Below, piece after piece: positions 11,453 through 55,444 of a DNA stretch of 64,000 nt. Origin of the DNA: an uncultured Candidatus Binatia bacterium. Lineage in GTDB: Bacteria > Desulfobacterota > Binatia > Bin18. A program made the translations under genes and the position numbers. Positions within the stretch are counted from its first letter, which is position 1. Every line of letters begins with the position of its first letter. Under the pieces are notes generated by a model. The model was given only the letters and a program-made list of their open reading frames with translations. It ran no database searches and had not been told where the DNA came from. The stretch is taken from positions 899,704-963,703 of the forward strand of contig CBDCPK010000005.1 in NCBI GenBank assembly GCA_965220195.1, in the 5' to 3' direction.

Positions 11453-11474
11453 CTGGAGGACACGTTTACTCTTT
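11421..11474. repeat. palindromic MITE/REP-like element, copy 3
   Basis: AGAGTAAACGTGTCCAGCATctctatacatagcTGGAGGACACGTTTACTCTTTT, overlapping the lplA-like 3' end. Confidence 0.8.
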
Positions 11475-15275: not shown

Positions 15276-15400
15276 GCTGACGATAGCTCCTTATATTTCT
15301 GACACTGCTGAGTAGCTGTGAGCAAGTAGAAACGAGAAAGTGAGTTCACCGGTATTAGGCGAATCGACAATTAACACAGGACTAGGGAGTAGGCTATTAC

Positions 15401-15720
15401 GCAGGCCAAGGCGCTGCTCACTGGCCGCTGCGCCCGCTCCGTCATTGCCGACAAAGCCGATGATAGTCAGGAACTCCTGGCCTTCATTAAAAACCAAGGG
15501 GCTACGCCAGTCATTCCTCCCCGGGCAGGGCGCCTAGCGCCCCGGTCCTATGACACGACTCTCTATAAGCACCGCAACTGGATTGAGCGCACCTTCAATC
15601 GGCTCAAACACTGCCGCCGCCTTGCCACCCGCTATGACCGCAAGACCGCCCCCTGCCTCGCCTTCTTACACCTCGCGGCCTTCGCCCTCTGGCAGTATTA
15701 CATGTCGATTCAGCCTAGGC
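15401..15720 (+). pseudogene. IS5-family DDE transposase, C-terminal fragment (no start codon)
   Basis: Frame translation ...ADKADDSQELLAFIKNQGATPVIPPRAGRLAPRSYDTTLYKHRNWIERTFNRLKHCRRLATRYDRKTAPCLAFLHLAAFALWQYY matches the conserved C-terminus of IS5/IS427-group transposases (NxIERxFxxLKxxRRIATRYDK). Only about 105 aa remain, with no upstream start. Confidence 0.5.
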
Positions 15721-18231: not shown

Positions 18232-18249
18232 AAGGGGCTACTCCCTAGT

Positions 18250-32249: not shown

Positions 32250-32257
32250 CCGGCTAG

Positions 32258-32311
32258 AAAGAGTAAACGTGTTCAGCATCCCATGTCTATGGGAGAACAC
32301 GTTTACTCTTT
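32258..32311. repeat. palindromic MITE/REP-like element, copy 6
   Basis: AAAGAGTAAACGTGTtCAGCATcccatgtctATgGGAGaACACGTTTACTCTTT, overlapping the aminotransferase 3' end and upstream of the HAD gene. Confidence 0.8.
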
Positions 32312-33534
32312 GCCTCACCGTCCGTCTTCATTATCTCATCCAGCGCGGTTAACAAGGCATCGAGGTCGTCCCGGCTGGTATAGTAATGAATCGAGACCCG
32401 TAGCCCGCCAACCCCGGAGCAGTACCGCACGGTCGGATAGATGTTCCGGGCTTCCAGCGCCTGATTGAGTTGGTGGACCCGGTCCGCGTCCGGAAACGGC
32501 TCGCAGGTGATAATGCCCGACCGCAGCGCGTGCGCCTCTTGGGTCCAGACCTTGATGTCGCGGCGTTTCAGCTCCTCTATCAGAAAGTCGCCCAGCGACA
32601 GAATATGCTCGGTGACGGCGGCGGAGTCGAGCTGGTTGACATAGGCCAGCGACTCCGCCAGGCCAGCGGTCCCAAGATTTTTGGGCATGCCATGCACCTC
32701 AAACCGGCGGGCGTCCGAGGCCAAAGGCAGGGACATAAAAGGTGTCAGTCCTGGGTCGCCAAGATAGCGTAGCCAGCCTTCCGGTGGCTCGGCCAGCGCG
32801 AACAGACCGTGCGCCAAGCCCGGTTCGACCTGCTCCTGAATTCCTGAACGGATGTATAACAGTCCGATATTAAACGGTGCGTTCAGCCATTTCTGGGCAC
32901 CCGCGGCCAGGAAGTCAATGTGCAGATCCGAAACGTCGAGCGGCAGGGCGCCCAACTGCTGAATGGCGTCCACCACCAGAAAACAGCCCCGCTCTTCAGC
33001 CAGGTGTGAAAACGCGGCCAGATCCATGCGCAGGCCGTTGATCCATTGCACCGAGCTCACCACAATCGCGCGGGTGTGTTGGTCTATCAGCCGGGTATAG
33101 TCATCCACCCCAATCAAGCCGTCCCGATGACGTGCAACCCGAACCTCAACTGCCTGATGCTTCTGGGAGTGCGCGGCGCTGATGGCAACCTGCGGATACT
33201 CCAGGTCGCACAGCACAATATTGTCCCCAGGCGCAAAAGGAATGGCAGCCAGGGCGGTGTTCAGCCCCATGGTGGTATCATCGGTAAAGGCGATTTCCGT
33301 AGGCTGAGCTCTGAGCAGCCGAGCGGCTTCCTGTCTGGCCTGAACGCTCGGTTTACCTAGCGCCTGATAATAGGCTGGGTAGCCCATCTCAGCCGGCCCC
33401 TGACCGAGCAGGGTCGCCGCGCGTTGGACGGCCTGGGTGGCGGACCTCGGCGGCAGCCCAATCCCGGCGGCATTCAGATAGACCTGTTGTGTTGTTCCCG
33501 GAAAATCCGCGCGTATTGCGTTCACGTCAAACAT
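32287..33534 (-). CDS. aminotransferase class V (cysteine desulfurase/kynureninase-like fold)
   Basis: 415 aa class V PLP enzyme-like sequence. Its last residues ...EAKSKRVLP and the stop are encoded by the 51-bp repeat at 32258-32311. Confidence 0.75.
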   Translation of the reverse strand: MFDVNAIRADFPGTTQQVYLNAAGIGLPPRSATQAVQRAATLLGQGPAEMGYPAYYQALGKPSVQARQEAARLLRAQPTEIAFTDDTTMGLNTALAAIPFAPGDNIVLCDLEYPQVAISAAHSQKHQAVEVRVARHRDGLIGVDDYTRLIDQHTRAIVVSSVQWINGLRMDLAAFSHLAEERGCFLVVDAIQQLGALPLDVSDLHIDFLAAGAQKWLNAPFNIGLLYIRSGIQEQVEPGLAHGLFALAEPPEGWLRYLGDPGLTPFMSLPLASDARRFEVHGMPKNLGTAGLAESLAYVNQLDSAAVTEHILSLGDFLIEELKRRDIKVWTQEAHALRSGIITCEPFPDADRVHQLNQALEARNIYPTVRYCSGVGGLRVSIHYYTSRDDLDALLTALDEIMKTDGEAKSKRVLP

Positions 33535-34963: not shown

Positions 34964-35126
34964 AGCGTTCTCCGTTCTGTCGGATCGTCATAAGCGCTGA
35001 CTTACCCTGGGTCAAGGAGACCGGCTTACGATGGGCTGACCAGCCCAAACCGCATTCCCTCTTGTCCCCGTGTATGGAAGGGTCTATGAAGGTCAAAGAA
35101 AGATAGAGACGACGAGCGGACGTATC

Positions 35127-36278
35127 ATGAGCCGGACTTCTCTTTTCGCTGGTCTCGTGTTTGGGGCAGGACTTGTCCTCCTGAGTGCGACCCAGGTTCT
35201 GACCCAAGAGAGAACGTTGCAAACCGAAGGCTGGCAGGGCAAGCGACCACAGCCCTCGGAGCAGCGGACCCCCGCTCCAGCCCCGCAGCGGCTAGCTCCC
35301 TCCGGGAAGCAGGTGCTCGAAATTCCCGTCCAGCCCCAACGCCCCGCCCTTCCGCCTCAGAGCCAGCAGGCGAGCCTCCCGCCTCGCCTCCAGCCTCTCC
35401 GCCCGCGTCCCAAACAACTGGTGACCGTTACCGTGACGGATCAAAATGGCGGCTACGTGCCCGGACTGCAAACGAACGATTTTGTGGTGTATGAAGGCGA
35501 CACGCGTCAGGAGATTACCTACTTCAATACCGGCGAGAATGAACCGGTCAGTCTGGGCTTAATCGTCGATTCGAGCGGCAGCATGCAGAATAAAATTGGG
35601 CACGCGCGCCACGCCCTGCAGCGGTTTATCGGCTCTATTAAGCCGCAGGACGAGGGCTTCCTGGTTGGATTCAGCGCACAGCCGTTTGTGCTGCAAGACT
35701 TCACGGACAGTCGGATGCTCCTGGCGCAGGGCATCGGCCTCCTCCGTCCACGGGGCGGAACCTCCCTATACGACGCGATTCTCACCGGTCTGCGGCGGAT
35801 GAGACAGGGTAAACACCGCAAGAAAGCCCTGATTGTGATGACCGACGGCATGGATACCGCCAGCCTATCCTCCCTCACGCAAACGATTGCCGTCTCGCAA
35901 CGCGCCGGCGTGCTGATTTACACGATTGGGATCGGCAATCCGCACCACCGTTACACGGCCGGTGGAAGCGGATTCGCTATCGGCCCATTCGGCGTTGTCG
36001 TTGGTGGGCATGATGAGCGTGTGGATTCACGAACGCTTCGGCGGTTGAGTGATGAAACCGGCGGACGCCACTTCCTGCTCAATACCAGGGATGTAGTCAA
36101 CAGCAGAACCGTGCTTGATACGGCGACCCAGACGATCTCGCGCGAACTCCGCTTCCAGTACAGTCTCGGCTACGTGTCCTCGGGAGGTGGCAATCAGTAC
36201 CGGAGTGTCCGCGTGGAAAGCACCCGGCCAGACGTCGTGATCCGCACCCAAAAGGGCTATGTGGCTGAGAGAGAGTAA
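35127..36278 (+). CDS. VWA domain-containing secreted protein with Pro/Gln-rich linker
   Basis: Signal peptide, PQ-rich low-complexity stretch, then vWA MIDAS (LIVDSSGSM...TSLYDA...MTDGMDT). The stop TAA is the first bases of the 51-bp repeat at 36270. Confidence 0.75.
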   Translation: MSRTSLFAGLVFGAGLVLLSATQVLTQERTLQTEGWQGKRPQPSEQRTPAPAPQRLAPSGKQVLEIPVQPQRPALPPQSQQASLPPRLQPLRPRPKQLVTVTVTDQNGGYVPGLQTNDFVVYEGDTRQEITYFNTGENEPVSLGLIVDSSGSMQNKIGHARHALQRFIGSIKPQDEGFLVGFSAQPFVLQDFTDSRMLLAQGIGLLRPRGGTSLYDAILTGLRRMRQGKHRKKALIVMTDGMDTASLSSLTQTIAVSQRAGVLIYTIGIGNPHHRYTAGGSGFAIGPFGVVVGGHDERVDSRTLRRLSDETGGRHFLLNTRDVVNSRTVLDTATQTISRELRFQYSLGYVSSGGGNQYRSVRVESTRPDVVIRTQKGYVAERE

Positions 36279-36322
36279 ACGTGTCCTCCAATGAGCGTGG
36301 ATAATGCTGGACACGTTCGCTC
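36270..36322. repeat. palindromic MITE/REP-like element, copy 7 (inverse orientation; right arm degenerate)
   Basis: GAGAGTAAACGTGTCCTCCAATgagcgtggataATGCTGGACACGTTcgCTCc. Supplies the VWA gene stop codon. Confidence 0.7.
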
Positions 36323-36354
36323 CTTGTAGCACGGCAGCCGCCTGCCCGGCCCTG

Positions 36355-43111: not shown

Positions 43112-44689
43112 GTGTGCAAGGGGTTGGGCAACGAGACACGGGCCGATATTGAGCACACGCCGAACCAGGACTATAATAGTGACCAGCCGGAGAACCCTGC
43201 TCGGCAACCCATGGCACGAGCAGCCGACGAGCCGATGGCAGCGCCCACGATTGAGCGACATCGCACTGCAATCACGCGGACCGACCTCTCCCGTCCGGTC
43301 CGTCTCGCGCTTGAGGACGGCCTGATCACCCCGGAGACGAGCGTCTTTGATTATGGCTGCGGGCGGGGCACGGATATTCTGCATCTCAGACATCGGCAGA
43401 TTCCCTGCCAGGGCTGGGACCCGGCCTATTTCCCGGACACCGAGCGAACGCCGGCCGATATTGTGAATCTGGGCTATGTGGTCAACGTGATCGAAAACCC
43501 AGGCGAGCGTACCGACGCCCTCCGCCGGGCCTGGGCACTGACCCGAACAGTGCTGATTGTGTCCGCCCGACTCAGCCTCGAAGCGGCGCTCGATACGCTG
43601 ACCCCTCATACCGACGGGGGCATTACCCGCCGCGGGACCTTTCAGAAATTTTTTGAACAGCAGGAACTCCGCGAGTGGATCGACACTGTGCTCGGCGTTT
43701 CGAGCGTGCCGGCCGGACCGGGGATTTTCTATGTGTTTCGGGACCCGCAGCAACGCCAGTCTTTTGCCGCCTCGCGCTATCGCCGCCGGTTCACGGTACC
43801 GCGCCAGCGTCTCAGCGAGGTCCTGTTCGAGCAGCATAAGGCTATCCTGGAGCCGCTGATAGAATTTCTGACGGCCCGGGGTCGCTTACCGGAGGACACG
43901 GAGCTGCCCGAGACGGAAGACATTTGTCAGGCATTAGGCAGTCTCAAACGGGCCTATGGCGTCATCCGGCGCGTCACCGGCGATGAAGAGTGGAATACAA
44001 TTCGCGCCGAGCGACAGCAGGATGTTCTCCTCTATGTCGCGCTCTCACGCTTTGAGGGCCGCCCGCGCTTCACCCAGCTCCCGCGTGATTTACAGCGTGA
44101 CGTGCGCGCGTTTTTCTCGTCCTATCGCCGCGCCTGCGCGCTGGCCGACGATCTGTTGTTTTCCGCGGGCGACCGGGCTGCGGTCGATCGGGCCTGCCGG
44201 AGCGTCGCAGTCGGGAAACTGACGCGCCAGGCCCTATACGTACACGAGTCCGCCCTGCCTCAACTCCCGCCCATTCTGCGTGCCTTTGAGGGGTGTGCGC
44301 GGGCGTATATCGGGGTGGTGGAGGGCGCGAATATCATCAAGCTGCACCGCGACCAGCCCCAGGTCTCTTATCTTTCGTACCCGGACTTCGAGCGCGACCC
44401 GCACCCCGCCCTGGCCAGCTCTCTGCTCGTGCCCTTGCAGACGTTCAAGATTCGCTACCGCACCTACCGGGAGTCGCCCAACCCGCCGATTCTGCACCGC
44501 AAAGAAACCTTTATCGCCACCGACCATCCCCTGTATGAAAAATTCTCCCGCCTGACATGCCAAGAAGAGAAAAAGGGACTATACGAAAAGCCCGAGTTGA
44601 TCGGCACCCGTGAAGGCTGGCAGGTCGCCCTGGCCGCCCGCGGCCTCCGCTTGGCCGGGCACCGGCTGATGCGCAAGGCTGCGCGTTAG
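43112..44689 (+). CDS. SAM-methyltransferase-like N-terminal domain protein with large uncharacterised C-terminal domain (resembles 'DNA phosphorothioation-associated putative methyltransferase' family)
   Basis: Class I MTase motif I-like VFDYGCGRGTDIL near the N-terminus, then about 350 aa with no motif I can name. The real start is probably 43211 or 43235 (MARAADEP/MAAPTIERHRTAI). The family assignment is from memory of the motif and context, not from a search. Confidence 0.55.
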   Translation: MCKGLGNETRADIEHTPNQDYNSDQPENPARQPMARAADEPMAAPTIERHRTAITRTDLSRPVRLALEDGLITPETSVFDYGCGRGTDILHLRHRQIPCQGWDPAYFPDTERTPADIVNLGYVVNVIENPGERTDALRRAWALTRTVLIVSARLSLEAALDTLTPHTDGGITRRGTFQKFFEQQELREWIDTVLGVSSVPAGPGIFYVFRDPQQRQSFAASRYRRRFTVPRQRLSEVLFEQHKAILEPLIEFLTARGRLPEDTELPETEDICQALGSLKRAYGVIRRVTGDEEWNTIRAERQQDVLLYVALSRFEGRPRFTQLPRDLQRDVRAFFSSYRRACALADDLLFSAGDRAAVDRACRSVAVGKLTRQALYVHESALPQLPPILRAFEGCARAYIGVVEGANIIKLHRDQPQVSYLSYPDFERDPHPALASSLLVPLQTFKIRYRTYRESPNPPILHRKETFIATDHPLYEKFSRLTCQEEKKGLYEKPELIGTREGWQVALAARGLRLAGHRLMRKAAR

Positions 44690-44801
44690 GCTGGCTCACA
44701 CTTTGCCAGCAATCAGGATGACGACCTTCGTGTCTGAGGAGTGCGGCATGTTGTCCGTACATTCACCGTATGCTAGGGTACTGCCGAACAGGAGGCGATT
44801 C

Positions 44802-45077
44802 ATGTCAATTGCCGAGGCCAAGTCAGAACGCATTGAGGTCCGCACCACGCCGCATATGAAGGCATTACTGCAACGCGCGGCCACTGCTTCGCATAAGAGC
44901 GTAACGGAATTCCTGCTTGAAGCGGGCATGAGCGCCGCCGAGGACGCCCTGATAAACAGACGATTGTTCCGGCTTGACGACGAGCAGTGGCAGATATTTC
45001 AGGATGCGCTTGACCGCCCGGTCACCGGGAAACCTCGCTTGGCTCGACTGCTGGCCGAAAAGAGCGTGCTGGAGTGA
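44802..45077 (+). CDS. DUF1778 (TacA-like) antitoxin
   Basis: AGGAGG RBS. MSIAEAKSERIEVRTTPHMKALLQRAATASHKSVTEFLLEAG is an RHH-type DUF1778 antitoxin partner of GNAT toxins. Its stop overlaps the toxin start. Confidence 0.75.
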   Translation: MSIAEAKSERIEVRTTPHMKALLQRAATASHKSVTEFLLEAGMSAAEDALINRRLFRLDDEQWQIFQDALDRPVTGKPRLARLLAEKSVLE

Positions 45078-45598
45078 CAGCGGAAGCCGAATCCTATTCT
45101 CCGATTGAGAAGCTGCACGAAACCCACCGTCTCGACGCCTTTCACTGCGGGAAAGAGCCGCTTGACCGTTTCTTGAAGCGGTTTGCACTGCTCAACCAAA
45201 AGGCTGGCGGCGCGCAGACCTACGTCGTTTGTCGGGACCGTAAGCGTGTTGTCGGCTATTACAGTCTGGCAGTTGGCGCGGTTGAGCACGCAGAAGCGCC
45301 CGGCCGGGTCGGCAGGGGGTTGGCCCGGCATCCTATTCCGGTGATGCTTCTCGCCCGGCTCGCAATTGACCGGACAGAGCAGGGCAAGGGTTTGGGCAAG
45401 GCACTCCTCAAAGATGCCCTGCTCAGGACCGCTCAAGCCGCAGACATTGCCGGCATCCGGGCGCTTCTTGTCCACGCCAAGGACGATGAGGCGCGGGTCT
45501 GGTATGAGAATCTGGAATTCGAGCCCAGTCCGACCGACCCCTACCATCTCTTCCTGCTGATGAAGGACCTGCGGGCACTCCTGAGCAATAGGCCATAA
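45074..45598 (+). CDS. GNAT family N-acetyltransferase toxin (TacT-like)
   Basis: GNAT acetyl-CoA motif (QGKGLGKALL) and 4-nt overlap coupling to the DUF1778 gene. Confidence 0.8.
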   Translation: MTAEAESYSPIEKLHETHRLDAFHCGKEPLDRFLKRFALLNQKAGGAQTYVVCRDRKRVVGYYSLAVGAVEHAEAPGRVGRGLARHPIPVMLLARLAIDRTEQGKGLGKALLKDALLRTAQAADIAGIRALLVHAKDDEARVWYENLEFEPSPTDPYHLFLLMKDLRALLSNRP

Positions 45599-45644
45599 GT
45601 CTCCTATTTCTTGCAAAATAGAAATGGATTTCTAAAATGCAAGA

Positions 45645-45917
45645 ATGCTGGCACGAAAAATCACAGCGGTTCTGCGCGCCCGGCAGCGGTCCTACCCGTC
45701 AGAAGAGGCGAAGATTCTTATCGCCGTCAAGCTCTATGAGATGGGTCGATTATCCACCGGTGCGGTAGCGAAGTTTGCCGGTGTACCCAAGCCACTATTT
45801 CTGACAAAGCTGGCGGACTATGGTGGCGATACCTTCGACCTGTCAAATGAGGAGCTTCGGTCTGTAAGGAGGTCAAATTTCGCAAAGCAATCAGGAATTG
45901 AACAGTCTGTCTGGTAA
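45645..45917 (+). CDS. UPF0175 family antitoxin-like protein (orphan)
   Basis: 90 aa. ...AVKLYEMGRLSTGAVAKFAGVPKPLFLTKLADYG is the UPF0175 signature. No DUF3368 partner follows it. Confidence 0.6.
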   Translation: MLARKITAVLRARQRSYPSEEAKILIAVKLYEMGRLSTGAVAKFAGVPKPLFLTKLADYGGDTFDLSNEELRSVRRSNFAKQSGIEQSVW

Positions 45918-46208
45918 ACTGGTATTCATACGTTCGGCTTCAGGGAAATAGCTTGCAAAGACATCTTTCAGATTATCCAATTCTGTCTCCTCCAAGGGCT
46001 CTCCGATATGGTAGGCAATAAATCGGGAAGCAAAGGCGGCAGCTTGCTTCCCGCTAACGATTCTAGCTCCATTCATTAGAATCCTCTGCCACATCGGATT
46101 ATCAATCTCCCAATTCACTTGATTAATGCGCTCTAGGATGCTCTCCCAAGACAGTCTTGATCCATCAGGTTGTTCTGCATTTTTCAGTCTTATGACTGCT
46201 AGCATCAA
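45891..46208 (-). CDS. hypothetical protein (low-GC), last gene of the DUF4007/P-loop operon
   Basis: 105-aa ORF 73 bp downstream of the P-loop gene on the same strand. GC is visibly lower than in neighbouring genes. Confidence 0.4.
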   Translation of the reverse strand: MMLAVIRLKNAEQPDGSRLSWESILERINQVNWEIDNPMWQRILMNGARIVSGKQAAAFASRFIAYHIGEPLEETELDNLKDVFASYFPEAERMNTSLPDRLFNS

Positions 46209-46281
46209 CGATAATTGAGAAATTGGCTTCCCTAGGAGCAGACTTCCCCTTATCTCTATTCGCTTCTCATCTCCACCCTCC

Positions 46282-49200
46282 TCACGACACCTTCCGCTTT
46301 GTTGACCAGCTCTCGGTTGGAGTATCCGCCGCAGCCTTGAGATACCGGGCGCTCATCTCGGCCAGGGCAGCCAGGATGATATTCCGCCGCTTTTCCCCGC
46401 TGTGCTCTAGGGCTTCCTCCACCTGATCGATCAACACATCCACCTTCTCCCGTTCCAGGTCGGTAATATCAAACTCGTCGTGGACCGGCGTGGGACGGCC
46501 GCCCATACTCACCACCACGGCCATAGCATGTCGTTTGTCCGGCCGTCCCTTTACATGGGCAAAGACCTCCGCGCGGATAAACTGCTGCGCCAGTTGCGCC
46601 AACTCAACCGCTGCCCGGTCGATGTCGGAGTCTACCCAGTTTTGGGCCGGCTTGTTGGTTGCCATACTCGCCAGACTCTCCATGTCCTCGTTGTTACCCT
46701 GAAACTGTCCGAGCCGGACGATGAAAGCTTCCAGGCGATGATCGCCGCCCAGTTGGCGGATGTTTTCGGCACGAGCGCGCAGTTCGGCCAACATTGGGGG
46801 TGAGGTATTCGGCACTTCTAGCTCGGCCAACAGCGTTTCCCGTAGACGATGCAGCATTGAGGGATAGGCTTCGCGTAGCTCTCTCAGCCCCTCACGCATG
46901 TGGTCTACGATTCGACGCAGATCGTCGCCCTCGTGGATATCGGCACCGTTACTCAGCAGGTTAGGGATATCGTCAAAAATCAGCTTGTTCGGGTCATTGG
47001 CCTGCTTGAATAACTGCCGTACCTGTTTCGCATTAGCGGAAAGCTGTTGTGTACGGAATACCCACGGCGACAGCCGATCATAGATTGCAACCAGACCCCT
47101 AGCTACATCAATGGGCTCCAGGTCAGTCAGTGCATTCTCCTCGTCCAGCTCGCGGACAACGGCGGCCATATCGGAGAGGAGCCGACGCGATGTATCCGAA
47201 AGGTCCATCCAACGTAGCTGAATGTCGGTCGGGTCTTTGACCAGGTAATCCATGTCCAGGTCGGACATACGCGCCTGAAAGAGACCCTGACGATAAAAGG
47301 CCAGATCGTGACGCTTCGACAGGATGAATGCGACCAACAGCACCGGCAACAGCCCGTCTTTGATGCCGAACGATGCCTGACGCCAGATATCGTATATCTC
47401 GACTGCTGATACCGTGCGGTACGCGTTGTCCTCAAGGAACCTAGTTGCCCTCCACCAAGCCGGTCCGAGGTTGCGGGTATCTTCGTCGTTGGCCGTGGGC
47501 GCAACAAAGGTCCAGCCCAGGATCGTTCTTCGGTATAGCCCGGTCGCCTCCAGTAGCGATGCAAACAGTCCGCCCTCAGCAGGGAAACCCTCGATACCGA
47601 GACGCTCTTCGCCTTCGTTGAAAATCATTCTCCGTAGCAGCGCATTCCGCGCGGCAGCCGCGTTACTCGACGGTTTGCTACGGTTCAGGAGTTCGTTATG
47701 CAGACGCGGCGACTCCTTAAATTGCGCGTCCGCCAGGACAGAGGCTAGGCTATTGAGTTCGGTCCGCGTGAGCGGCTTGGTATCGTGCTGTTTCCGATAC
47801 CACAGAGCGTTATTGGACGCGCGATCCAACTCACTTTCCAGCCGCCCCTGGAGGAGCGCTATGCGGGCTTCAACCTCGCGCCGTGCTACTTGGTCGCCTT
47901 GCAGCTCCGGCGTCTCGTCGCTCACCTGCTCCAAGGCTAACAGCTCCCGCGCAAGGGACGTGATATCCCAAGCGTCCTGAGGCAGGCCAACTACAATATC
48001 CCAGTCCTGAGACCGATCTACAGCACGACGACATATATGCTCGATCTCCTCCCCCAACTCGCCCTGGGTCGGAATCGCTAGGAAGAAGGCCCCAATGGCT
48101 CCGTGCCGGGGGGTGTAGTTGGCTACAGCCTGTTCGATCTCGGCCAATGGCATGAGAGCTACGTCGAACCAGCGCAGCGTACCTGTCGCGTGGTAATGAC
48201 GCTTGGCCACAATAGGCTGAAGGTCAGCAAGAGCGTTGAGCCTGGCAAAGTCTACCTCGCTGATGGTCGTCAAAGCCTGCTCTACCGCGTGCTCAATGTC
48301 GAAGTCACTACCCTCAAAGACAGCATAGGCGTTATTAAACTTGCGGAAGATAATCAGCGCCTGGTCTTGCAGCTTCGCTAGAGCTTGTCCGATCTCTTCC
48401 GAACCGCAGTCGGGCAGCGCATGTTTCAGAAGATCAAGGCTTGCCACCAAACCGGAGCGGTCTTTCAGTAAATCCACGAGCGCGATGGTCTTGAGCAGCC
48501 TCAGATGCAGTTCCTCGCCGCCTATGGCTTCGCACCGTTCCAGGACATCGGCAGCCAAGGCCCAGCGGTGGCCGTCGGGTGAGGCCATGATGGAAGGTTC
48601 GAGGTTAATGCGCAGATAGTCCCACAGACGGTCCGGCGCATAGAGGCCGCCATCTCCTGCGGATCGCAGAAAATCTTGAAAGCCCTGTGGCTCAGTGGAG
48701 TTGAGAAACCCAAAAATGCTGCGCTGGTTCTGACCGAATCGACGCCGCGACAGGGGGCCTAGCAAGCAGGCGACTATGGGATGAAGCGGCCAACAGTCTT
48801 CCAGCATCTGCGCTAGATGTGAAGACGTATGTCTGCGCAGTACGGCCACGCTTTCGGCCAAGGCGCTCGGCTTCTTCGGCTCACGGTTGCTCTCGATAGC
48901 GCGGCTAAGGAGGTCAATCTGCTCGTCCCCACCAATATTGACAGCAAGGTCCACAAACCGGCCTTGAATCTTGGCCCACTCGTCGCGCATCTCACGCGCC
49001 AAACGATGGGCGTACTCTTCAAACGCCTGGTGGAGGATACCGACGACAATGAGTCGCTTGTTGCTACGCGAAGCCAATTCAGCGAGTTGCTGAAAGAAGT
49101 AAATATCGGTCCCGTCGTAGGCAGCCGCCTCCAGAAACTTGCCCATCTCGTCAATGAATACCAACAGCCCGCCACCAGCGCGTGGATACTGCGCCGCGAG

Positions 49201-49668
49201 ATTTTGGAGAGACTCCAGTGCGAGCGGCTCGCTCCAGGTCTTTGGGGTCTTACCGGTCAAAAGTCTGGTCGCTTCTATAGCTTCACCGACCACCTGGGCT
49301 GGGCGGTCACGCCGGCCGACAACAGGCAGGACGCGCCAGCCCTTAGTACGGGGCGGTAGCGCGTCCCAGATAGGATCAGCCGTATTTTCACCAAGGACCG
49401 AGGCCGCATAATACCTGAGATCGCCGTCTCCGTTCAGGAGGGCGCTGAATGCCACGGCCAGGCTCGACTTGCCACTGCCATAGGGGCCGGTCCAGGTAAA
49501 AGCGCCTTGCCCGTTCTCGGCAATGTGGCGCGCCATGGTCTTGAGGATATCGGCGGAGGATGGGGGGCAGATGAACCCTTTCAGAGCCGCCGGGTCGGCG
49601 AGGTCCGTGTCAATACGGATAGCACGCTGGAAGCGTCGGGCGATATGGACACGATCAGCTAGGGCCAT
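46282..49668 (-). CDS. large P-loop NTPase (1128 aa), candidate ATPase of a Dnd/Ssp- or BREX-like defence/modification cassette
   Basis: Walker A GPYGSGKSS (aa about 62-70) and Walker B-like LLVFIDEMG (aa about 178-186). The remaining roughly 900 aa look helical or repetitive. Its start ATG overlaps the stop of the upstream DUF4007-like gene (TAATG). Confidence 0.8.
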   Translation of the reverse strand: MALADRVHIARRFQRAIRIDTDLADPAALKGFICPPSSADILKTMARHIAENGQGAFTWTGPYGSGKSSLAVAFSALLNGDGDLRYYAASVLGENTADPIWDALPPRTKGWRVLPVVGRRDRPAQVVGEAIEATRLLTGKTPKTWSEPLALESLQNLAAQYPRAGGGLLVFIDEMGKFLEAAAYDGTDIYFFQQLAELASRSNKRLIVVGILHQAFEEYAHRLAREMRDEWAKIQGRFVDLAVNIGGDEQIDLLSRAIESNREPKKPSALAESVAVLRRHTSSHLAQMLEDCWPLHPIVACLLGPLSRRRFGQNQRSIFGFLNSTEPQGFQDFLRSAGDGGLYAPDRLWDYLRINLEPSIMASPDGHRWALAADVLERCEAIGGEELHLRLLKTIALVDLLKDRSGLVASLDLLKHALPDCGSEEIGQALAKLQDQALIIFRKFNNAYAVFEGSDFDIEHAVEQALTTISEVDFARLNALADLQPIVAKRHYHATGTLRWFDVALMPLAEIEQAVANYTPRHGAIGAFFLAIPTQGELGEEIEHICRRAVDRSQDWDIVVGLPQDAWDITSLARELLALEQVSDETPELQGDQVARREVEARIALLQGRLESELDRASNNALWYRKQHDTKPLTRTELNSLASVLADAQFKESPRLHNELLNRSKPSSNAAAARNALLRRMIFNEGEERLGIEGFPAEGGLFASLLEATGLYRRTILGWTFVAPTANDEDTRNLGPAWWRATRFLEDNAYRTVSAVEIYDIWRQASFGIKDGLLPVLLVAFILSKRHDLAFYRQGLFQARMSDLDMDYLVKDPTDIQLRWMDLSDTSRRLLSDMAAVVRELDEENALTDLEPIDVARGLVAIYDRLSPWVFRTQQLSANAKQVRQLFKQANDPNKLIFDDIPNLLSNGADIHEGDDLRRIVDHMREGLRELREAYPSMLHRLRETLLAELEVPNTSPPMLAELRARAENIRQLGGDHRLEAFIVRLGQFQGNNEDMESLASMATNKPAQNWVDSDIDRAAVELAQLAQQFIRAEVFAHVKGRPDKRHAMAVVVSMGGRPTPVHDEFDITDLEREKVDVLIDQVEEALEHSGEKRRNIILAALAEMSARYLKAAADTPTESWSTKRKVS

Positions 49669-50630
49669 TACGCGGCATCCCTCTTGTTATTCACGGCGTA
49701 GTCCAGATTGATGAAGTCAAGCGCAGCCTCGACGGACAACTCACGCTTGCGGATGAGTTGCTTCAGACCGGCCGTCTCCGACCACGTGTAGATGCCTTCG
49801 CTCGCCTCTTCCAGGTCAGTAAGCATATCCACCACACCGTTTTCGTCCAGTAGAAAGACCCGACCGGGTGACCCAGGCTCATAGGCAAGGGTCTCAAAGG
49901 ATAGCGTCTGGGCGGTTTTGGAAAACCGATTCCAGAAGTCCGTTACCGCATAGCAGAACACGCCAGCGCCGAGAGACGGCTTCTGCCCATGGACGAACCT
50001 GAACCGCTCGCTCTTGCCCACTCGTTTAACCAGACCAAGCTCGGTTAAGGGTGACTCCAGGGCGTCTTCCTGGCTGGCTTGTTTTGATGAGCGCTGCGCA
50101 ACATAGGTCCGTACAAAACAGGTCACGTCTCTTCCGATGGTGGCCTTGGAGGCACGATCCCAAGTGCACTCCTCGGCGAGTTTGCCAAGGGCTTTGACCA
50201 AGGTTTCACGCTCGAAGAACAGAGCCGGATAATGGCTGAAGGTCCAGAACCACGTAGTCTTATTTGGACGGCCACACAGATGCCAATGGATCAACCACGA
50301 CGTAGCCGGGTCTTCCATATAGGGATCAAGTCCGTCTGTGCCGAACAAGCGCTGTCCAAGAGCAGTGGTTACGAGCCCGTTCTTGTCGGTGGCCTCCTCA
50401 ATGATGCCTGTCGCCGTAGCCCAATGGCGCATGGAGGAAACCATGTTCTTACCAACGCCGAATCGGGCGATGGCATCTTCGCCAGAGAAAACCGATCTGT
50501 TGTCGTCCTGGTCTTCGGCTGCTTGGATGGCGTCAAAAGCCTTTTTTAACCAGCCATAGCGGAGCGGAAAAGTTTCGTGTCCCGAAAACTGCGGCTTGTA
50601 GCTGTCCTCAAAAAGTGGTCCGCGTGCCAT
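49668..50630 (-). CDS. DUF4007-like protein (SspB-like by motif recollection)
   Basis: 320 aa. The N-terminal FSGHETFPLRYGWLKK is the motif I associate with DUF4007, the domain of the phosphorothioation nickase SspB. Translationally coupled to the P-loop gene. Confidence 0.6.
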   Translation of the reverse strand: MARGPLFEDSYKPQFSGHETFPLRYGWLKKAFDAIQAAEDQDDNRSVFSGEDAIARFGVGKNMVSSMRHWATATGIIEEATDKNGLVTTALGQRLFGTDGLDPYMEDPATSWLIHWHLCGRPNKTTWFWTFSHYPALFFERETLVKALGKLAEECTWDRASKATIGRDVTCFVRTYVAQRSSKQASQEDALESPLTELGLVKRVGKSERFRFVHGQKPSLGAGVFCYAVTDFWNRFSKTAQTLSFETLAYEPGSPGRVFLLDENGVVDMLTDLEEASEGIYTWSETAGLKQLIRKRELSVEAALDFINLDYAVNNKRDAA

Positions 50631-50758
50631 CTGCCCTCTAGCTACTGGGTGGAGCCTTCAGATCATGTGTAGCTCATATCCTATACCCTATGTTAGGGTC
50701 AGGCAAAAGCACGCAAGCTGAGGTTCCACCCTCAGATTCCATATATAATTGAGAAACA
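50631..50758. promoter_or_regulatory. divergent promoter region between DUF4007-like operon and cysteine desulfurase gene
   Basis: 128-bp AT-richer intergenic region between divergently oriented genes, with TATA-rich stretches (tccatatataattgagaaacaATG). Confidence 0.3.
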
Positions 50759-51946
50759 ATGAAAATCGGCAAAACCCTCTATTTCGACCATCAGGCCACA
50801 ACGCCGGTCGATGCGCGTGTTATGGCCGCCATGACTCCCTATTTCGTGGAATCATTCGGCAATCCTCATTCCTCGGATCATAGCCTTGGTTGGGAATCCG
50901 CGAGTGCCGTGGAAAAAGCCGCCGCGCGCGTGACGCGGCTTATCGGCGCGGACGCCGACGAAATCACCTTCACCTCGGGAGCAACCGAGTCAAATAACTT
51001 AGCCCTGCTCGGCTTGGGCCGCCGGGCTGCCGGGGGCAAGCGCCGCCGCATCTTGGTCAGCGCCATCGAACATAAATGCGTGTTGGCCGCTGCCAGAGTT
51101 TTACAAGAGCAGTTCGGTTTCGCCGTAGAACTGATCCCGGTTGACCATCAAGGTTTCGTGAAAATGGCGGCTCTGGAAGAAGCGTTAGACGATGATGTTC
51201 TCGTCGTGTCGGTCATGGCGGTCAATAACGAAATCGGGACGATTCAAGATATTGGGCGAATATCCGAACTAGTAAGAGGCTACGGGGCCGTTTTTCATTG
51301 TGATGCAGCCCAAGCGCCCCTTGCCATGAATATGGAATCGATGGCGAGCCAGGCCGATATGCTGAGCCTTTCGGCGCACAAGATGTATGGCCCGAAAGGC
51401 ATTGGAGCCATCTATATTGCGCGTGAATTGCAGGACCAAATCGAGCCACTGATCTATGGCGGCGGACAGCAGAATGGTCTACGCTCGGGCACGGTTCCGG
51501 TTCCGCTCTGCGTTGGGATGGGTGCAGCAGCAGATATCTTTACCGCTGCCGACACGGAAGAGAAGCGGGCGCAGTTATGCCGCCGTCGCGATACGTTTGT
51601 TGAAATGCTCAACCGTCTACCGTGGCCGATAACGTTGAACGGCCCTCAAGGGCAGGCCCGCCACCCCGGCAATGCCAATATCCGGTTCGCTGGATTTTCA
51701 GCGGAGGACATCCTCAGCACTTTACAGCCGCACCTCGCGGCATCCACCGGTTCTGCCTGCACCTCGGGTATCCCCGAGCCGTCGCACGTTCTGAGAGCTA
51801 TCGGGTTGAGTGGTGAGGAGGCGGAATCCTCGATTCGTTTCAGCCTCGGCTTTGACACCACCGACGCAGACCTTGAAGAGGCGGTGCGGCTAATTACGGA
51901 GGCATTGACGCGGTTGGCGCGGGCCGGGCTGTGTGCTGGGTCGTAG
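50759..51946 (+). CDS. cysteine desulfurase (IscS/NifS/DndA-like class V aminotransferase)
   Basis: 395 aa. LYFDHQATTPVD start, PLP lysine region SLSAHKMYGPKGIGA, and the catalytic Cys in the C-terminal loop (ASTGSACTSG). Confidence 0.85.
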   Translation: MKIGKTLYFDHQATTPVDARVMAAMTPYFVESFGNPHSSDHSLGWESASAVEKAAARVTRLIGADADEITFTSGATESNNLALLGLGRRAAGGKRRRILVSAIEHKCVLAAARVLQEQFGFAVELIPVDHQGFVKMAALEEALDDDVLVVSVMAVNNEIGTIQDIGRISELVRGYGAVFHCDAAQAPLAMNMESMASQADMLSLSAHKMYGPKGIGAIYIARELQDQIEPLIYGGGQQNGLRSGTVPVPLCVGMGAAADIFTAADTEEKRAQLCRRRDTFVEMLNRLPWPITLNGPQGQARHPGNANIRFAGFSAEDILSTLQPHLAASTGSACTSGIPEPSHVLRAIGLSGEEAESSIRFSLGFDTTDADLEEAVRLITEALTRLARAGLCAGS

Positions 51947-51974
51947 AAAACCCATCCCGCCGCTGACGCGGCAC

Positions 51975-52028
51975 AAAGAGAGAACGTGTCCAGCATCACA
52001 TGTGTATTGGAGGACACGTTTCCTCTTT
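51975..52028. repeat. palindromic MITE/REP-like element, copy 8
   Basis: AAAGAGAgAACGTGTCCAGCATcacatgtgtATTGGAGGACACGTTTcCTCTTT, 30 bp after the cysteine desulfurase stop. Confidence 0.8.
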
Positions 52029-52993
52029 CCCTCCCAAGACGTGTGATGTGTATTATTAGCCAGGGACGAGGGTGGTGAGTGCTAAGGTGGGCCGTCCGAA
52101 GAGGTGATTCAGCCACAGGCCGAGATTGCCGGCGTCCAACTGGGCCGCGATGCGGGTCAGCAAGCCGTGGGCGGTCTGGGCGCCCGGAAAGTGTCGGCCA
52201 CAGGGGCGTGTGAGGGGGCCATGGATGGTCTCGACGATCGGGCGCCAGCGGCCCTACGGGCGTTTGACGGGAGCCCGCGTTGCCGCCCGCCCCTTCGGGG
52301 GCGGGAGTACCGGCGCCCCGCCAGAGCGCGGGGAGAGTGGGGAATGCAGGTATTGAAGACAGGCGAATGAGAGAATATATTCTGGCTCGAAAGCAGAAGA
52401 CACTCTGAGCGAAACGCGGGCGGCGCCCACCGGACATAGAACGCTGTTTAACATGTGGCTGATTTTGAATTGGTGATTGGGCCATAATTGTGTCGGGGCG
52501 CCGCATGCGGCGCTCCTGTCGGTCGTATATGTCATAAAATGTCGTACAAAAAGACAAATTACGGCTCAATAAGCCATCAAAGTGTGCACAAAAAGACCCC
52601 CTGCGGTTCAATAAGTTATTGATTTCATTGCATTCAGGTCGGAGACCCCCCCCTATATTTTTTTGGGGTGTTTGCTATAGAAGAACAGCGTTTTATAATA
52701 CTTTCCCAAGAGTCCCCCGCAGACACGAGAAAACCGGGTCGCTCCCTTCTCCTCCCCGCTCGGGACGGGTGAGGCGTTTTGCCGCGTCAGCCCAGGAAGA
52801 GGGGGGCAACGGCCACGGCGGGCCGGCCGAAGCGGTGGGTGAGCCAGGGGCCGAGAGTGCCGGCGGCGCGCTTGGCGGCCAGTCGGGGCAACCAGCCCCG
52901 GGGGCTGTGGGCGCCCGGACAGGGCAAGCCTAGCCTATCCTCGACACGCTCCTTATAAAGTGCCCCCTAATCTGCATCACCCCTCCCAAGAGG

Positions 52994-54291
52994 CTGACAA
53001 GGGTAGGTAACCGCCGCGTCATGGCGGTCCATACGTCACCTGGAGATGCGGGGGCGGCTGAGGCCAGGGCTCAGGCAGGAGCCACAAGCTACGCCACAGC
53101 CGGCCCTGGAGGAGTTGGCGGCCGAACCACTGCAAGCCTTGGCGGAAGACACTGAGGGGGCGGGGGCCGGGCGGCGGCGGGTCCCGCGGTGTCCGTAAGT
53201 GGGCGGGCGGCACGCCCTGCGTCTGGGCGTCCTCACTGCGGGTGCCATAGGCCACGACCCACAAGGTCGCGACCGCCAACACTAACCAGTGGCGCGCCAC
53301 GCGCGCGGGATCGGTCCGGCGGGTGTGCTGCCACTGCCAGCCTACGCCTTTCAGAGCGCGGAAGCCGCATTCAATCCACATCCGTAAGCCGTACCAACAC
53401 AGCCCGACTTGGGCCGGGGCGAGATCGGTCACCACCACCCACGGTTCCCGTTGCTCCGCGCCCCAGACCACTACGAGTGTGCCCACCCGCTGGCGCTGGC
53501 GCTCCTGAAAGAGCACCCCGCGCCCGACCCAGCCCTCCCCTGGAGCCCGGACCAAGGTCGCGGCTGGCTGGCGCGCGGCCCCGAACGGTTGAAAGGCGGT
53601 CGCCTGACGCACTCGCATCATCGGATGCCAACCCCCGGCCCGAATCGTCCGCCACAGCCGGGGGCTCCACAGCCCCCGGTCCGCGAACACCACCACCTGC
53701 ATCTCCTTGGGAATGGCGGGGCGCAACTGGCGCAGCAAGCGCCCCAAGGGGCGCAGCCATGCGCCCTTGCGATTCGCCGGTAAGATATGCCACGCCACTG
53801 GCACCGCACTCCCGCGATACAAGACACTGACCACTAATGCCGCCACGCGCTGCCCGTGCAAGGTCGCATCCACGGCCAAGGCTAACTCGCGCCCTTGCCA
53901 CCAAGCTAAGAGCCAGCCCAGCAACGGCGCGAAACATTGCTCGACCTCCACTTGCGGCTGACACGGCGCCGCTTTATCGGCCCCATCGTACAACCATTCC
54001 CGGAGGTATTGCCGGACCGTGTGAAAGCGGCCGACCGCCCCTAACGCACTCACCACCGCGTTCTGACACGCACTCTGGGCGACCACGGCCCCATACACCC
54101 ACAACGCTAACCCCCGCCGCTGGGCCGGCCGTAAGACCGGTAAATACTGGGCAAGCTGCTCTTCCATCTGGTAACATTCTCGTGGCAAGCGCATGGGCTC
54201 CCTCCGACACCATTCGAGTTTCAGCACTCCAAATGATGCCGGAGGCCCTTGCGCTTGCCTATGGCTCCGCCCTTTTACCTACCCCTCTGAG
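52994..54291 (-). mobile_element. intact IS4-family-like insertion sequence (about 1.3 kb) with imperfect terminal inverted repeats and 11-bp target-site duplication CTCCCAAGAGG
   Basis: IRL CTGACAAGGGTAGGTAA (52994-53010) and IRR reverse-complement CTCAGAGGGGTAGGTAA (54275-54291) match at 14 of 17 positions. The flanking direct repeats CTCCCAAGAGG sit at 52983-52993 and 54292-54302. Joining the flanks recreates the CACCCCTCCCAAGAGGGGATGGGG hairpin repeat seen elsewhere. Confidence 0.65.
53019..54227 (-). CDS. DDE transposase (IS4/IS701-like)
   Basis: 402 aa. ...LAVDATLHG...VVFADRGLW...YGLRMWIECGFRALK carries the DDE residues and the IS4-type Y-x2-R-x3-E-x6-K motif. Confidence 0.8.
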   Translation of the reverse strand: MLKLEWCRREPMRLPRECYQMEEQLAQYLPVLRPAQRRGLALWVYGAVVAQSACQNAVVSALGAVGRFHTVRQYLREWLYDGADKAAPCQPQVEVEQCFAPLLGWLLAWWQGRELALAVDATLHGQRVAALVVSVLYRGSAVPVAWHILPANRKGAWLRPLGRLLRQLRPAIPKEMQVVVFADRGLWSPRLWRTIRAGGWHPMMRVRQATAFQPFGAARQPAATLVRAPGEGWVGRGVLFQERQRQRVGTLVVVWGAEQREPWVVVTDLAPAQVGLCWYGLRMWIECGFRALKGVGWQWQHTRRTDPARVARHWLVLAVATLWVVAYGTRSEDAQTQGVPPAHLRTPRDPPPPGPRPLSVFRQGLQWFGRQLLQGRLWRSLWLLPEPWPQPPPHLQVTYGPP

Positions 54292-54322
54292 CTCCCAAGA
54301 GGGGATGGGGATATCGGGTAAA

Positions 54323-54529
54323 ATGATGCGGAAACAGACAATTGAATACCCCTCCCCCTTTGATGCGTTGATAGCAGTGACGAAGCGGCTGAGCATTTAT
54401 GAGAGCCAGCAGCAGATGGACTCGGAGGAGTTCTTTGATCGGTACAACCGGGGCAAACTGTCGGATGACACGGTGTTTGTGGAATGGGCGAACGATTACC
54501 GCCATTATTTGGAACTTCGCCAGAAATGA
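54323..54529 (+). CDS. hypothetical small protein (68 aa)
   Basis: ATGATG start 20 nt after the IS right flank. MMRKQTIEYPSPFDALIAVTKRLSIYESQQQMDSEEFFDRYNRGKLSDDTVFVEWANDYRHYLELRQK. Possibly an addiction-module component, which is speculative. Confidence 0.35.
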   Translation: MMRKQTIEYPSPFDALIAVTKRLSIYESQQQMDSEEFFDRYNRGKLSDDTVFVEWANDYRHYLELRQK

Positions 54530-54682
54530 GAAAAAAGCCTGCACGATGTTGCAGCATGTCATGGACGCGGTGGTTAGAGAATGAGGACGTATAACGCGGA
54601 ACAGACTGGACTTGTTTGACTCTCCTGTGAATCAGGATACGATGCCTGGGAATAGCCATCGAAACGACAAGGAGCACGAAAC

Positions 54683-54952
54683 ATGTCGAGACGGCTTAAC
54701 TTTGAAGTGGAAGTTCCGGACGACGTGTGTGTACATCTCCCTCAGGAGGAGTTTGCCGCTAAGGCAAAAGAGGCGCTGGTTATGGAGCTCTTGCGTGAGC
54801 ACCAGATATCGCAAGGCAAGGCCGCAGAGATGCTTGAGATACCGCGCCATGACTTGTTTGACCTGATGACGAGATATCAAGTCTCGGTTCTTGATCTAAC
54901 GCACGAGGAACTCAAGGCTGAACTACAGAAGCCCTTTCCCCGAGCTTCTTAA
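54683..54952 (+). CDS. UPF0175 family antitoxin-like protein
   Basis: 89 aa. ...ALVMELLREHQISQGKAAEMLEIPRHDLFDLM. Followed 10 nt later by a DUF3368 gene. Confidence 0.65.
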   Translation: MSRRLNFEVEVPDDVCVHLPQEEFAAKAKEALVMELLREHQISQGKAAEMLEIPRHDLFDLMTRYQVSVLDLTHEELKAELQKPFPRAS

Positions 54953-54961
54953 GCGTTCTAT

Positions 54962-55444
54962 ATGCAGGTTGTTGCGGATGCCGGTCCTCTTCTCTCATTT
55001 GCCCGCGCCGAGCGTCTAGCCCTCCTCAAATCCGTCACGGGCTCTGTCATTATTCCAACAGCCGTCTACGAAGAGATTGTCGTTAAGGGTGCTGGTAAAC
55101 GTGGCGCGGATGAGGTGGAGCACGCAGACTGGATTGAGCGCCGATCCGTTAGAGATCAGACGTTCGCCGATCGCTTACCCCATAAACTCCATAGTGGAGA
55201 ACGCGAAGCCATCACACTCGCCAGGGAGATTGGCGGGAGCTTGTTAGTTGACGAGTTGGAAGTCAGGAAGGAAGCGCAACGCCTCGGCGTTCACTATTTT
55301 GGCAGTCTTGCCCTGCTTAAAGAAGCAAAGCAGCGTGGGCGCATTCTCGCGGTAAAGCCGGTCCTAGACGAGCTGATTGCAGCCGGCACCTATATTAGCA
55401 AATCGCTCTATCAAGACGTGCTTGAACAGGTTGGGGAGACATAG
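54962..55444 (+). CDS. DUF3368 (PIN-like) domain toxin-like protein
   Basis: MQVVADAGPLLSFARAERLALLK...LVDELEVRKEA is the typical DUF3368 partner of UPF0175. Confidence 0.7.
   Translation: MQVVADAGPLLSFARAERLALLKSVTGSVIIPTAVYEEIVVKGAGKRGADEVEHADWIERRSVRDQTFADRLPHKLHSGEREAITLAREIGGSLLVDELEVRKEAQRLGVHYFGSLALLKEAKQRGRILAVKPVLDELIAAGTYISKSLYQDVLEQVGET

Follow-up and report, generated by a model that had tools for sequence, protein, structure and literature searches.

The type system for single-strand DNA phosphorothioation (PT) is SspABCD, described from Vibrio cyclitrophicus FF75 and E. coli 3234/A (Xiong et al. 2020, as relayed in PMC8092258, PMC7188994, and PMC10853773). In published accounts of the intact system, SspA draws sulfur from cysteine, and SspD, a binding partner of SspA, presumably receives and activates this sulfur; the choice and preparation of the DNA site fall to SspB (a triple wHTH nickase) and SspC (an ATPase), and a single-strand phosphorothioate, for example CpsCA, results. 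The accepted minimal PT gene set is sspBCD, the SspD/DndC pyrophosphatase is reported to be essential, and SspC is homologous to BrxC of BREX type 4 (brxP-brxC-pglZ-brxL), DUF6079 being found in both (PMC12914056). Against this background, we examined a locus within a 64-kb stretch of DNA, which we refer to in its entirety as the window. The locus is very probably a broken copy of an SspABCD cluster of this already described type, not a new defence system. The preliminary description had put forward an undescribed modification/defence cassette and offered a degenerate Ssp-like remnant as the alternative. We reject the first claim, since the locus holds canonical SspA, SspB, and SspC genes next to a deletion scar and every informative relative has sspD; of the two, the second is the correct reading. 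The value of the result is thus mainly corrective, in that a seemingly new sulfur-dependent cassette would be known SspABCD just after the loss of an essential gene. The features on which the argument draws are as follows.

43112..44689, + strand: TIGR04096 [quoted passage not shown], 525 aa, intact, convergent with the ssp operon
44703-45077, + strand: TacA-like antitoxin (Pfam TacA1, 88.5 bits), probable true start near 44802
45074-45598, + strand: GNAT acetyltransferase (Acetyltransf_7/10/1), read as a TacT-like toxin
45645..45917, + strand: UPF0175-family small protein, 90 aa, antitoxin-like (Pfam UPF0175, 52 bits)
45891..46208, - strand: 105-aa open reading frame, the open tail of the DndB-like remnant, with a fortuitous TTG start
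45897..46280, - strand: 3' remnant of a DndB-like (ParB-superfamily) gene, residues 295-422 of 423 (tblastn)
46256..46281, - strand: deletion scar, retaining the sspD ribosome-binding site (GGAGG) and ATG (46270-46268)
46282..49668, - strand: sspC, 1128-aa P-loop ATPase of the DUF6079 / SspC-BrxC family, full length
49668..50630, - strand: sspB, 320-aa DUF4007 protein, the Ssp nickase/DNA-recognition subunit, intact
50759..51946, + strand: sspA, 395-aa cysteine desulfurase, intact, divergent from sspB
53019..54227, - strand: IS4-family transposase (Pfam DDE_Tnp_1; NCBIfam IS4, 107 bits)
54962-55444: DUF3368 gene

All five open reading frames originally described (525, 105, 1128, 320, and 395 aa) are present where they had been placed, and the dndA/ssp-like layout recognised at the outset holds. 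As in SspABCD, sspA diverges from sspB-sspC, the start and stop of sspB and sspC overlap (by one base, with position 49668 in common), and all three proteins give full-length family matches. The 395-aa protein, rightly called a cysteine desulfurase, scores 437 bits against PADLOC SspA, 421 bits against DndA, and 274 bits against Pfam Aminotran_5 in HMM searches. SspA itself is dispensable where IscS substitutes for it. For the 320-aa protein, the proposed likeness to DUF4007/SspB is confirmed by scores of 305 bits against Pfam DUF4007 (PF13182; cutoff, 27) and 367 bits against PADLOC SspB and by a match to SspB of PDB 6JUF (E 1.9e-39); the motif quoted for it, FSGHETFPLRYGWLKK, is present. A scan of the ssp operon for promoters and terminators gave counts no higher than chance.

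The 1128-aa ATPase, in which the Walker A (GPYGSGKSS) and Walker B (LLVFIDEMG) motifs are both found, matches the PADLOC SspC profile PDLC02780 with 1337 bits over profile positions 1-1044 of 1045. It had been taken for a protein about twice the size of SspC, which is mistaken: SspC proteins do not have about 560 aa, and the PADLOC profiles for them span 1011-1123 positions (828 in one case), so its size is ordinary for the family. More than 5000 homologues are on record; among the matches listed, full-length ones have about 1122-1141 aa, and some carry PF19557. A PDB sequence search with SspC returned zero matches. An exact-sequence look-up of the window SspC returned no record, and relatives were therefore used for comparison. 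Nor does the suggested BrxC/KAP likeness of the ATPase stand. The protein shares homology with BrxC (373 bits with the best PADLOC BrxC model), and DUF4007 is found in BrxP, but the SspC score is far higher, and NCBIfam BrxC gives 19 bits against a cutoff of 400. Furthermore, DUF4007 stands alone in the window SspB, with no PAPS-reductase fusion, and the 64 kb contain no PAPS-reductase gene. The novelty argument of the preliminary description had leaned on the size of the ATPase and its BrxC/KAP likeness.

With DndABCDE, the locus shares a divergent cysteine desulfurase, a DndB-family accessory gene (a remnant in the window), and a TIGR04096 methyltransferase. It differs in that the window lacks DndC, DndD, and DndE, for which tblastn with the proteins of locus L090 gave no match at E <= 0.01, confirming the reported absence of DndE- and DndC-type genes; the ATPase is of the SspC type, not the ABC/SMC type of DndD, and the DndB domain (PF14072, about 340 positions) is present as a fragment only. 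The window also differs from SspABCD systems in that tblastn searches, for which GmrSD_N and DndB-like proteins and an SNF2 helicase of relatives served as queries, revealed neither an SspE (DUF262/GmrSD-type) nor a Vibrio-type SspFGH partner. The tail of a DndB-like gene was the sole match; the GmrSD_N queries found none, as the earlier report of a missing SspE-type partner leads one to expect. We considered the name SspFGH for the DndB-like and SNF2-helicase genes of related loci L001 and L006 and rejected it: they receive no Ssp name from PADLOC, and Vibrio SspF, which carries a Walker A motif, and SspH, which is FtsK-like (PMC8092258), differ from them.

The only component of the SspABCD set absent from the window is sspD. 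The SGGxDS motif occurs in none of the six frames across 64 kb, in agreement with the original failure to find a PP-loop gene, and tblastn with the SspD proteins of three relatives gave nothing better than E 0.5. Among 86 related loci, chosen by SspC similarity alone, 85 have sspD, either directly 3' of sspC (81 loci) or after an insertion of about 1.2 kb (4 loci); the sole locus without it is L067, whose contig of 3.6 kb breaks off at sspC. The relatives' sspD genes encode 275-279 aa (the L080 product scores 453 bits against PADLOC SspD), and close relatives of the window locus show the complete sspABCD gene order. Most of the related loci come from metagenome assemblies in which several allelic types co-exist, and of sspBCD two diverged types are in circulation within the lineage. 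The suspicion that these genes are fragments left by the degeneration of a canonical ssp operon is thus borne out, but the rest of the operon does not lie just outside the window; part of it was deleted within the locus.

Because SspD is missing, the remaining SspA, SspB, and SspC should not make phosphorothioate, and we infer that this degenerate module is most likely inactive. The loss of sspD was probably recent, since sspA, sspB, and sspC remain intact. Private changes in sspB and sspC (14 nonsynonymous and 25 synonymous, versus 77 and 248 in the pooled comparison; Fisher p 0.12) show no significant nonsynonymous excess, and decay is demonstrated only for the deletion itself. The intact genes and the lack of significant relaxation of constraint would also suit a module that still works with an SspD/DndC-type enzyme acting in trans from elsewhere in the genome, for example from another ssp or dnd cluster. 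In favour of this, the lineage has sspBCD in two diverged allelic types, some genomes carry Ssp together with Dnd clusters (PMC12914056), and the frequent occurrence of TIGR04096 genes within dnd operons makes a dnd cluster elsewhere conceivable. We nevertheless regard such supply as improbable: the contiguity of sspD with sspC in 85/85 informative loci argues for tight functional coupling, no SspD- or DndC-like gene is found in the 64 kb, and the sole reported cross-complementation test failed, brxC not being replaceable by sspC (PMC12914056). The intact frames and absence of significant relaxed selection likewise make it conceivable, though very unlikely, that SspABC, possibly with the TIGR04096 methyltransferase, might retain activity without the cognate SspD, either through an unlinked PAPS-reductase/ThiI-type enzyme or with SspB-SspC as a PT-independent DNA-scanning/nicking module.

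The reading of the locus as a broken SspABCD cluster gains a concrete form at the 3' end of sspC. Here, the match to L001-L006 (86-91% nucleotide identity, blastn) stops at 46268, 14 nt beyond the sspC stop, and the match to positions 16048-16458 of L080, in the interior of its DndB-like gene, starts at 46280 (blastn). In a three-way alignment (A1), the crossover falls inside a shared 10-mer, GGTGGAGATG (46277-46268), made up of the sspD ribosome-binding site and ATG; the retained ATG now opens a 4-codon frame, ATG AGA AGC GAA TAG. L080 comes from a related Candidatus Binatia genome, and its DndB-family gene encodes 423 aa (Pfam DndB, 121 bits). By tblastn, this protein is 90% identical to the window (E 5e-72) over query residues 295-422 only, and since only this C-terminal part matches, the 105-aa open reading frame is a DndB fragment. 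Consistent with this, that frame covers profile positions 284-336 of 338 in PF14072 with 20 bits, below the cutoff of 29.1, and PADLOC DndB too gives a weak C-terminal match to the remnant. The low GC content that had been noted for the 105-aa frame is real (44% versus 59% for the window); the remnant, also at 44%, is akin to the GIY-YIG and DndB-like genes of L080, at 42-43%.

Judging from the junction itself, a single deletion scar would account fully for the sspD-less arrangement. The starting state would have been a canonical Ssp module, with sspA divergent from sspB-sspC-sspD, on a Candidatus Binatia-like chromosome. A single microhomology-mediated deletion or illegitimate recombination would then have fused the start codon of sspD with the inside of a DndB-like gene located downstream. 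By L080 coordinates, about 2.7 kb would have been lost: sspD, which encodes an ATP pyrophosphatase of the PAPS-reductase type, a GIY-YIG-like gene, and the initial ~70% of the DndB-like gene. In taking the modification-essential sspD together with the GIY-YIG/DndB-like partners, one deletion could offer a plausible safe route to discard modification-linked defence. The exact predicted ancestor, type-1 sspBCD followed by an L080-type GIY-YIG/DndB-like pair, is in no sampled genome, so the event may have been a two-allele recombination instead of a simple deletion, with the same outcome either way. We also sought a left crossover within sspA; it could not be placed, because sspA is equally similar (85-93% nucleotide identity) to the sspA genes of both sspBCD allelic types of related Binatia loci and cannot discriminate between them.

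The junction could in principle be an assembly artefact: a wrong join between contigs or strains, with sspABCD intact in the real genome next to a GIY-YIG/DndB-like partner. In favour of this, most relatives stem from metagenome assemblies in which several allelic types co-exist, and in a scan of JGI metagenome contigs the scar junction had 0 matches, leaving the junction allele so far known only from the window; this is a weak negative, because ENA, not JGI, is the source of most relatives. A mis-join is highly unlikely, however, as the joined parts share 10 bp only, far under assembler k-mer or overlap lengths, and both flanks are collinear with the relatives' locus in the right order and orientation, as a true internal deletion gives.

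The preliminary description was right to assign the 525-aa protein to the TIGR04096 type (625 bits against an NCBIfam cutoff of 150), and the SAM-methyltransferase motif reported for it, VFDYGCGRG, is present. Its true start is probably the Met at 43211 or the Met eight codons later; the protein is about 60% identical to hundreds of homologues of about 480-500 aa. The family is widespread, very conserved, and tied to both Dnd and Ssp loci; a literature search on TIGR04096 found nothing functional, and a PDB search with the family profile gave marginal matches only (best E, 0.03). In L090-L093, the gene is the sixth of dndBCDE operons, and in L087-L089 it has no PT genes nearby, whereas the window member adjoins an Ssp, not a Dnd, locus and is convergent with and outside the operon. 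It lies within 10 kb of ssp in 4/86 loci, and sspD is kept alongside in three of these four; no informative relative has an sspD-less set, and the four genes therefore do not form a conserved neighbourhood without sspD. Because it also stands beside relatives that keep sspD, among them L006 and L080, the methyltransferase is no substitute for SspD and is a separate known PT-associated gene. A distinct SspD-independent modification/defence system made of SspA, SspB, SspC, and the methyltransferase, although all four genes are intact and the TIGR04096 family is genuinely PT-associated, is barely credible and already largely refuted, given an arrangement unique among 86 loci, a scar with the sspD ribosome-binding site and ATG and a truncated neighbour gene that explains it fully, the sspD-keeping loci beside the same methyltransferase, and a toxin-antitoxin module separating the convergent, non-co-operonic genes.

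The surroundings match the depiction of an island with toxin-antitoxin modules and an IS, in that the TacA/GNAT pair, the UPF0175 and DUF3368 genes, and the IS4 transposase are all found. According to the gene table of L006 and blastn boundaries, the TacA/GNAT module (44703..45598) fills the slot held by HigB/HTH_3 in L006, and the UPF0175 gene is island cargo outside ssp. The IS4 transposase sits inside a segment (~51975-54291) that parts sspA from the right flank; in L005 the same flank adjoins sspA, and comparison with L005, L031, and L023 places it otherwise directly beside sspA. A composite transposon formed by the 402-aa frames at 35070 and 53019 was considered and dismissed, as the two have no mutual nucleotide similarity and the first encodes a VWA-domain protein. 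The window has the MTase-Cupin_7 flank in common with L006 and L080 and the FMO gene with L006 alone; its sspA side recurs in L004, L005, L023, and L031. Conserved flanks in the Binatia lineage studied are thus sspA on one side and the TIGR04096 methyltransferase on the other, between which diverged sspBCD alleles and different partner or toxin-antitoxin cargo are swapped.

The cassette is a degenerate form of the known SspABCD system. The genes at issue in the window are as follows.

43112-44689, plus strand: 525-aa TIGR04096 protein (MTase)
45891-46208, minus strand: 105-aa open reading frame (ORF)
46282-49668, minus strand: sspC
49668-50630, minus strand: sspB
50759-51946, plus strand: sspA

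The three core proteins are unambiguously SspA, SspB and SspC, with PADLOC scores of 437, 367 and 1337 bits, respectively; the SspC match spans profile positions 1-1044 of 1045. All ORFs of the preliminary description are present exactly as listed there, their translations contain the quoted motifs, and its observation is confirmed: the 395-aa protein matches the class-V aminotransferase/cysteine desulfurase families, the 320-aa protein matches the DUF4007 HMM (305 bits; cutoff, 27) and crystallised SspB (PDB 6JUF; E 1.9e-39), the 525-aa protein matches TIGR04096, [quoted passage not shown] (625 bits; cutoff, 150), the 105-aa ORF is low in GC (44% versus 59% for the window), and the PP-loop motif SGGxDS is absent from every frame of the whole 64 kb. 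The preliminary description wrongly put the ATPase at about twice the size of DndD/SspC. Because the 12 PADLOC SspC profiles have lengths of 1011-1123 positions, save one of 828, 1128 aa is normal for SspC. SspC and BrxC are known homologues with DUF6079 in common (PMC12914056), and PF19557 is a precomputed domain on several close homologues; BrxC models score far below SspC on this protein (PADLOC, 373 bits; NCBIfam, 19 bits against a cutoff of 400).

According to published work, SspA mobilises the sulfur of cysteine, and SspD, an ATP pyrophosphatase bound by SspA, is thought to accept this sulfur (PMC7188994). The nickase SspB has a triple-wHTH architecture, and the ATPase SspC has been assigned by one analysis to the Orc/Cdc6 clade (PMC7188994, PMC10853773). 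We compared the window with 86 loci selected by SspC similarity alone, 6 from exact-protein look-ups of the closest SspC homologues (90-94% identity) and 80 from a scan with one genome per species. By tblastn, 85 of the 86 carry sspD, encoding a protein of 275-279 aa whose PP-loop reads LSGGRDS; the gene directly follows sspC in 81 and comes after an insertion of ~1.2 kb in 4; the copy in L080, a related Candidatus Binatia locus, scores 453 bits against PADLOC SspD. The sole locus without sspD (L067) is represented by a contig of 3.6 kb, which stops 41 nt past sspC. When three relatives' SspD proteins were used as tblastn queries against the 64-kb window, the best E value was 0.5. An SspD or DndC encoded elsewhere in the genome could act in trans, but the universal sspC-sspD linkage argues otherwise, and we consider this unlikely.

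Nucleotide homology with the closest loci, L001-L006 (86-91%), covers sspB and sspC and ends at window position 46268, 14 nt past the sspC stop codon. Leftward from 46280, the window is 90% identical to positions 16048-16458 of L080 (chromosome OY761159.2), which form the interior of a 423-aa DndB-family gene (Pfam DndB, 121 bits). At the junction the two homologies overlap in the 10-mer GGTGGAGATG (three-way nucleotide alignment A1), which in intact relatives covers the sspD ATG and the last bases of the ribosome-binding site ahead of it; its presence inside the L080 DndB-like gene is a chance occurrence. The sspD ribosome-binding site and ATG are kept in the window, and the next codons are AGA AGC GAA TAG. 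Measured on L080, about 2.7 kb has been lost, taking with it sspD, a GIY-YIG-like gene of 162 aa and codons 1-294 of the DndB-like gene. Of the DndB-like protein, the window still encodes residues 295-422 alone (90% identity, E 5e-72), and the 105-aa “gene” is this tail read from TTG. Its derivation from an L080-type DndB-like gene explains both its weak DndB C-terminal HMM matches and its low GC content; the L080 GIY-YIG and DndB-like genes have a GC content of 42-43%.

Type-1 sspBCD and L080-type partner genes were found together in no sampled genome. The junction could stem from a simple deletion, in an ancestor that was not sampled, or from replacement of one allele by another through a homologous crossover in sspA and an illegitimate one at the microhomology; either route would yield the same product. 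An assembly mis-join is unlikely, since only 10 bp are in common at the junction and both sides come from the same syntenic locus. The GIY-YIG-like/DndB-like pair follows sspD in L080 (14763-16437), and a 35%-identical pair lies upstream of dndA in the dnd operon of L092 and L093 (about 1-1372). The pair is possibly a recurrent phosphorothioate (PT)-associated effector/regulator module, for which PADLOC holds no name beyond DndB.

Both window flanks are collinear with relatives. The MTase-side flank shares the TIGR04096 MTase and Cupin_7 with L006 and L080 and an FMO-like gene with L006, and the opposite flank has sspA, then toxin-antitoxin (TA) genes and TauD, in common with L004, L005, L023 and L031. 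The sspA gene is 85-93% identical in nucleotide sequence to sspA of two sspBCD allelic types, whose mutual identity is only 55-73% from the first sspB codons onward; the two types begin to diverge at the start codon of sspB, near 50600 (window versus L006, L080, L031, L023 and L064). Different genomes carry different cargo in the interval from sspD to the MTase.

L006: DndB-like gene, SNF2 helicase, AAA_14, HigBA
L080: GIY-YIG, DndB-like gene, small ORFs
L031: GmrSD-like gene
Window, MTase side of ssp: TacA/GNAT module and UPF0175

With collinear flanks and cargo that differs between genomes, the locus behaves as a hotspot of recombination bounded by conserved flanks and looks like a site of cassette exchange. 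The TacA antitoxin and GNAT module (44703-45598) occupies the slot of HigB/HTH_3 in L006. Beside it, a surviving 91-bp stretch (45608-45698; 97% identity to L006 11614-11704) marks another cargo replacement.

The TIGR04096 family is large and strikingly conserved (about 60% identity across phyla; typical length, 480-500 aa). In two of three homologue look-ups, the MTase is the sixth gene of a dndA/dndB-C-D-E operon and either overlaps dndE or directly abuts it (L090-L093); in the third, its neighbours are housekeeping genes and no PT gene lies within 8 kb of it (L087-L089). Because it occurs within 10 kb of ssp in only 4 of the 86 loci (L006, L031, L056 and L080), all with sspD, it is neither an SspD replacement nor a regular Ssp component; three of these four correspond to the window's own Binatia locus. 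An AlphaFold2 model built from a 52-sequence alignment is confident (pLDDT 91, pTM 0.87) and shows a class-I SAM-MTase fold at its N-terminus. Each of the top PDB matches spans only about 124-181 residues, so the last ~300 aa of the model appear to lack a PDB match. A literature search for functional work on this MTase found none. The headline of the preliminary description, a new modification or defence system, is contradicted by the deletion scar, by an arrangement unique among relatives and by an MTase that also adjoins intact loci; its fallback, a degenerate Ssp-like remnant, stands, and the type of system is already known.

For PT synthesis, sspBCD is regarded as the minimal set, and the PAPS-reductase-type enzyme is reported to be essential (PMC12914056). 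With sspD gone and an SspD-type enzyme essential, we infer that the locus can no longer make phosphorothioate. The three remaining ssp genes are intact, and their lineage-specific substitutions (14 nonsynonymous/25 synonymous versus 77/248 in six relatives; Fisher p 0.12) do not differ significantly; thus, the loss is probably recent, or the test is short of power. A 94%-identical relative, seen in two independent samples, retains sspD but has its sspC broken into ORFs of 991 aa and 127 aa (L094 10001-13388; L095 2252-5639). It represents a second decaying allele of this ssp clade, independent of the first, and decay of the cluster seems recurrent in the clade. One deletion took sspD and its GIY-YIG/DndB-like partner together. 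By analogy with SspFGH and DndFGH, which are toxic in PT-less cells (PMC8092258), we speculate that modification-gene loss may be tolerated when the linked effector is also lost, with which the deletion is compatible.

An extra window segment (about 51975-54291) with an IS4 transposase parts sspA from the sequence that adjoins sspA in L005. Beyond the IS, 54292-54874 is common to L005 and L064, and 54292-55444 is more TA-like cargo. A 321-aa ORF (51646-52611, minus strand) is probably not a gene, because it overlaps the sspA end and has no family match. Further features are as follows.

876-3164 and 3580-5850, minus strand: adjacent paralogous genes, ~760 aa, mutual nucleotide identity 71%
12750-20772, minus strand: three tandem MMPL/RND-type transporter paralogues, ~840 aa, mutual nucleotide identity 70-79%
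52058-52191 and 52789-52922: 134-bp direct repeat between sspA and the IS4 transposase, 72% identity
54962-55444: DUF3368 (PIN-like) gene, TA-like cargo beyond the IS, preceded by a small ORF (54683-54952)

The gene at 876-3164 encodes molybdopterin-binding (xanthine/aldehyde dehydrogenase-type) domains. A REP-like intergenic repeat of ~55-59 bp occurs in both orientations at 11420-11474, 11836-11891, 26463-26521, 32254-32312, 36272-36326 and 51974-52028, and also in the relative L002 (6251-6307).
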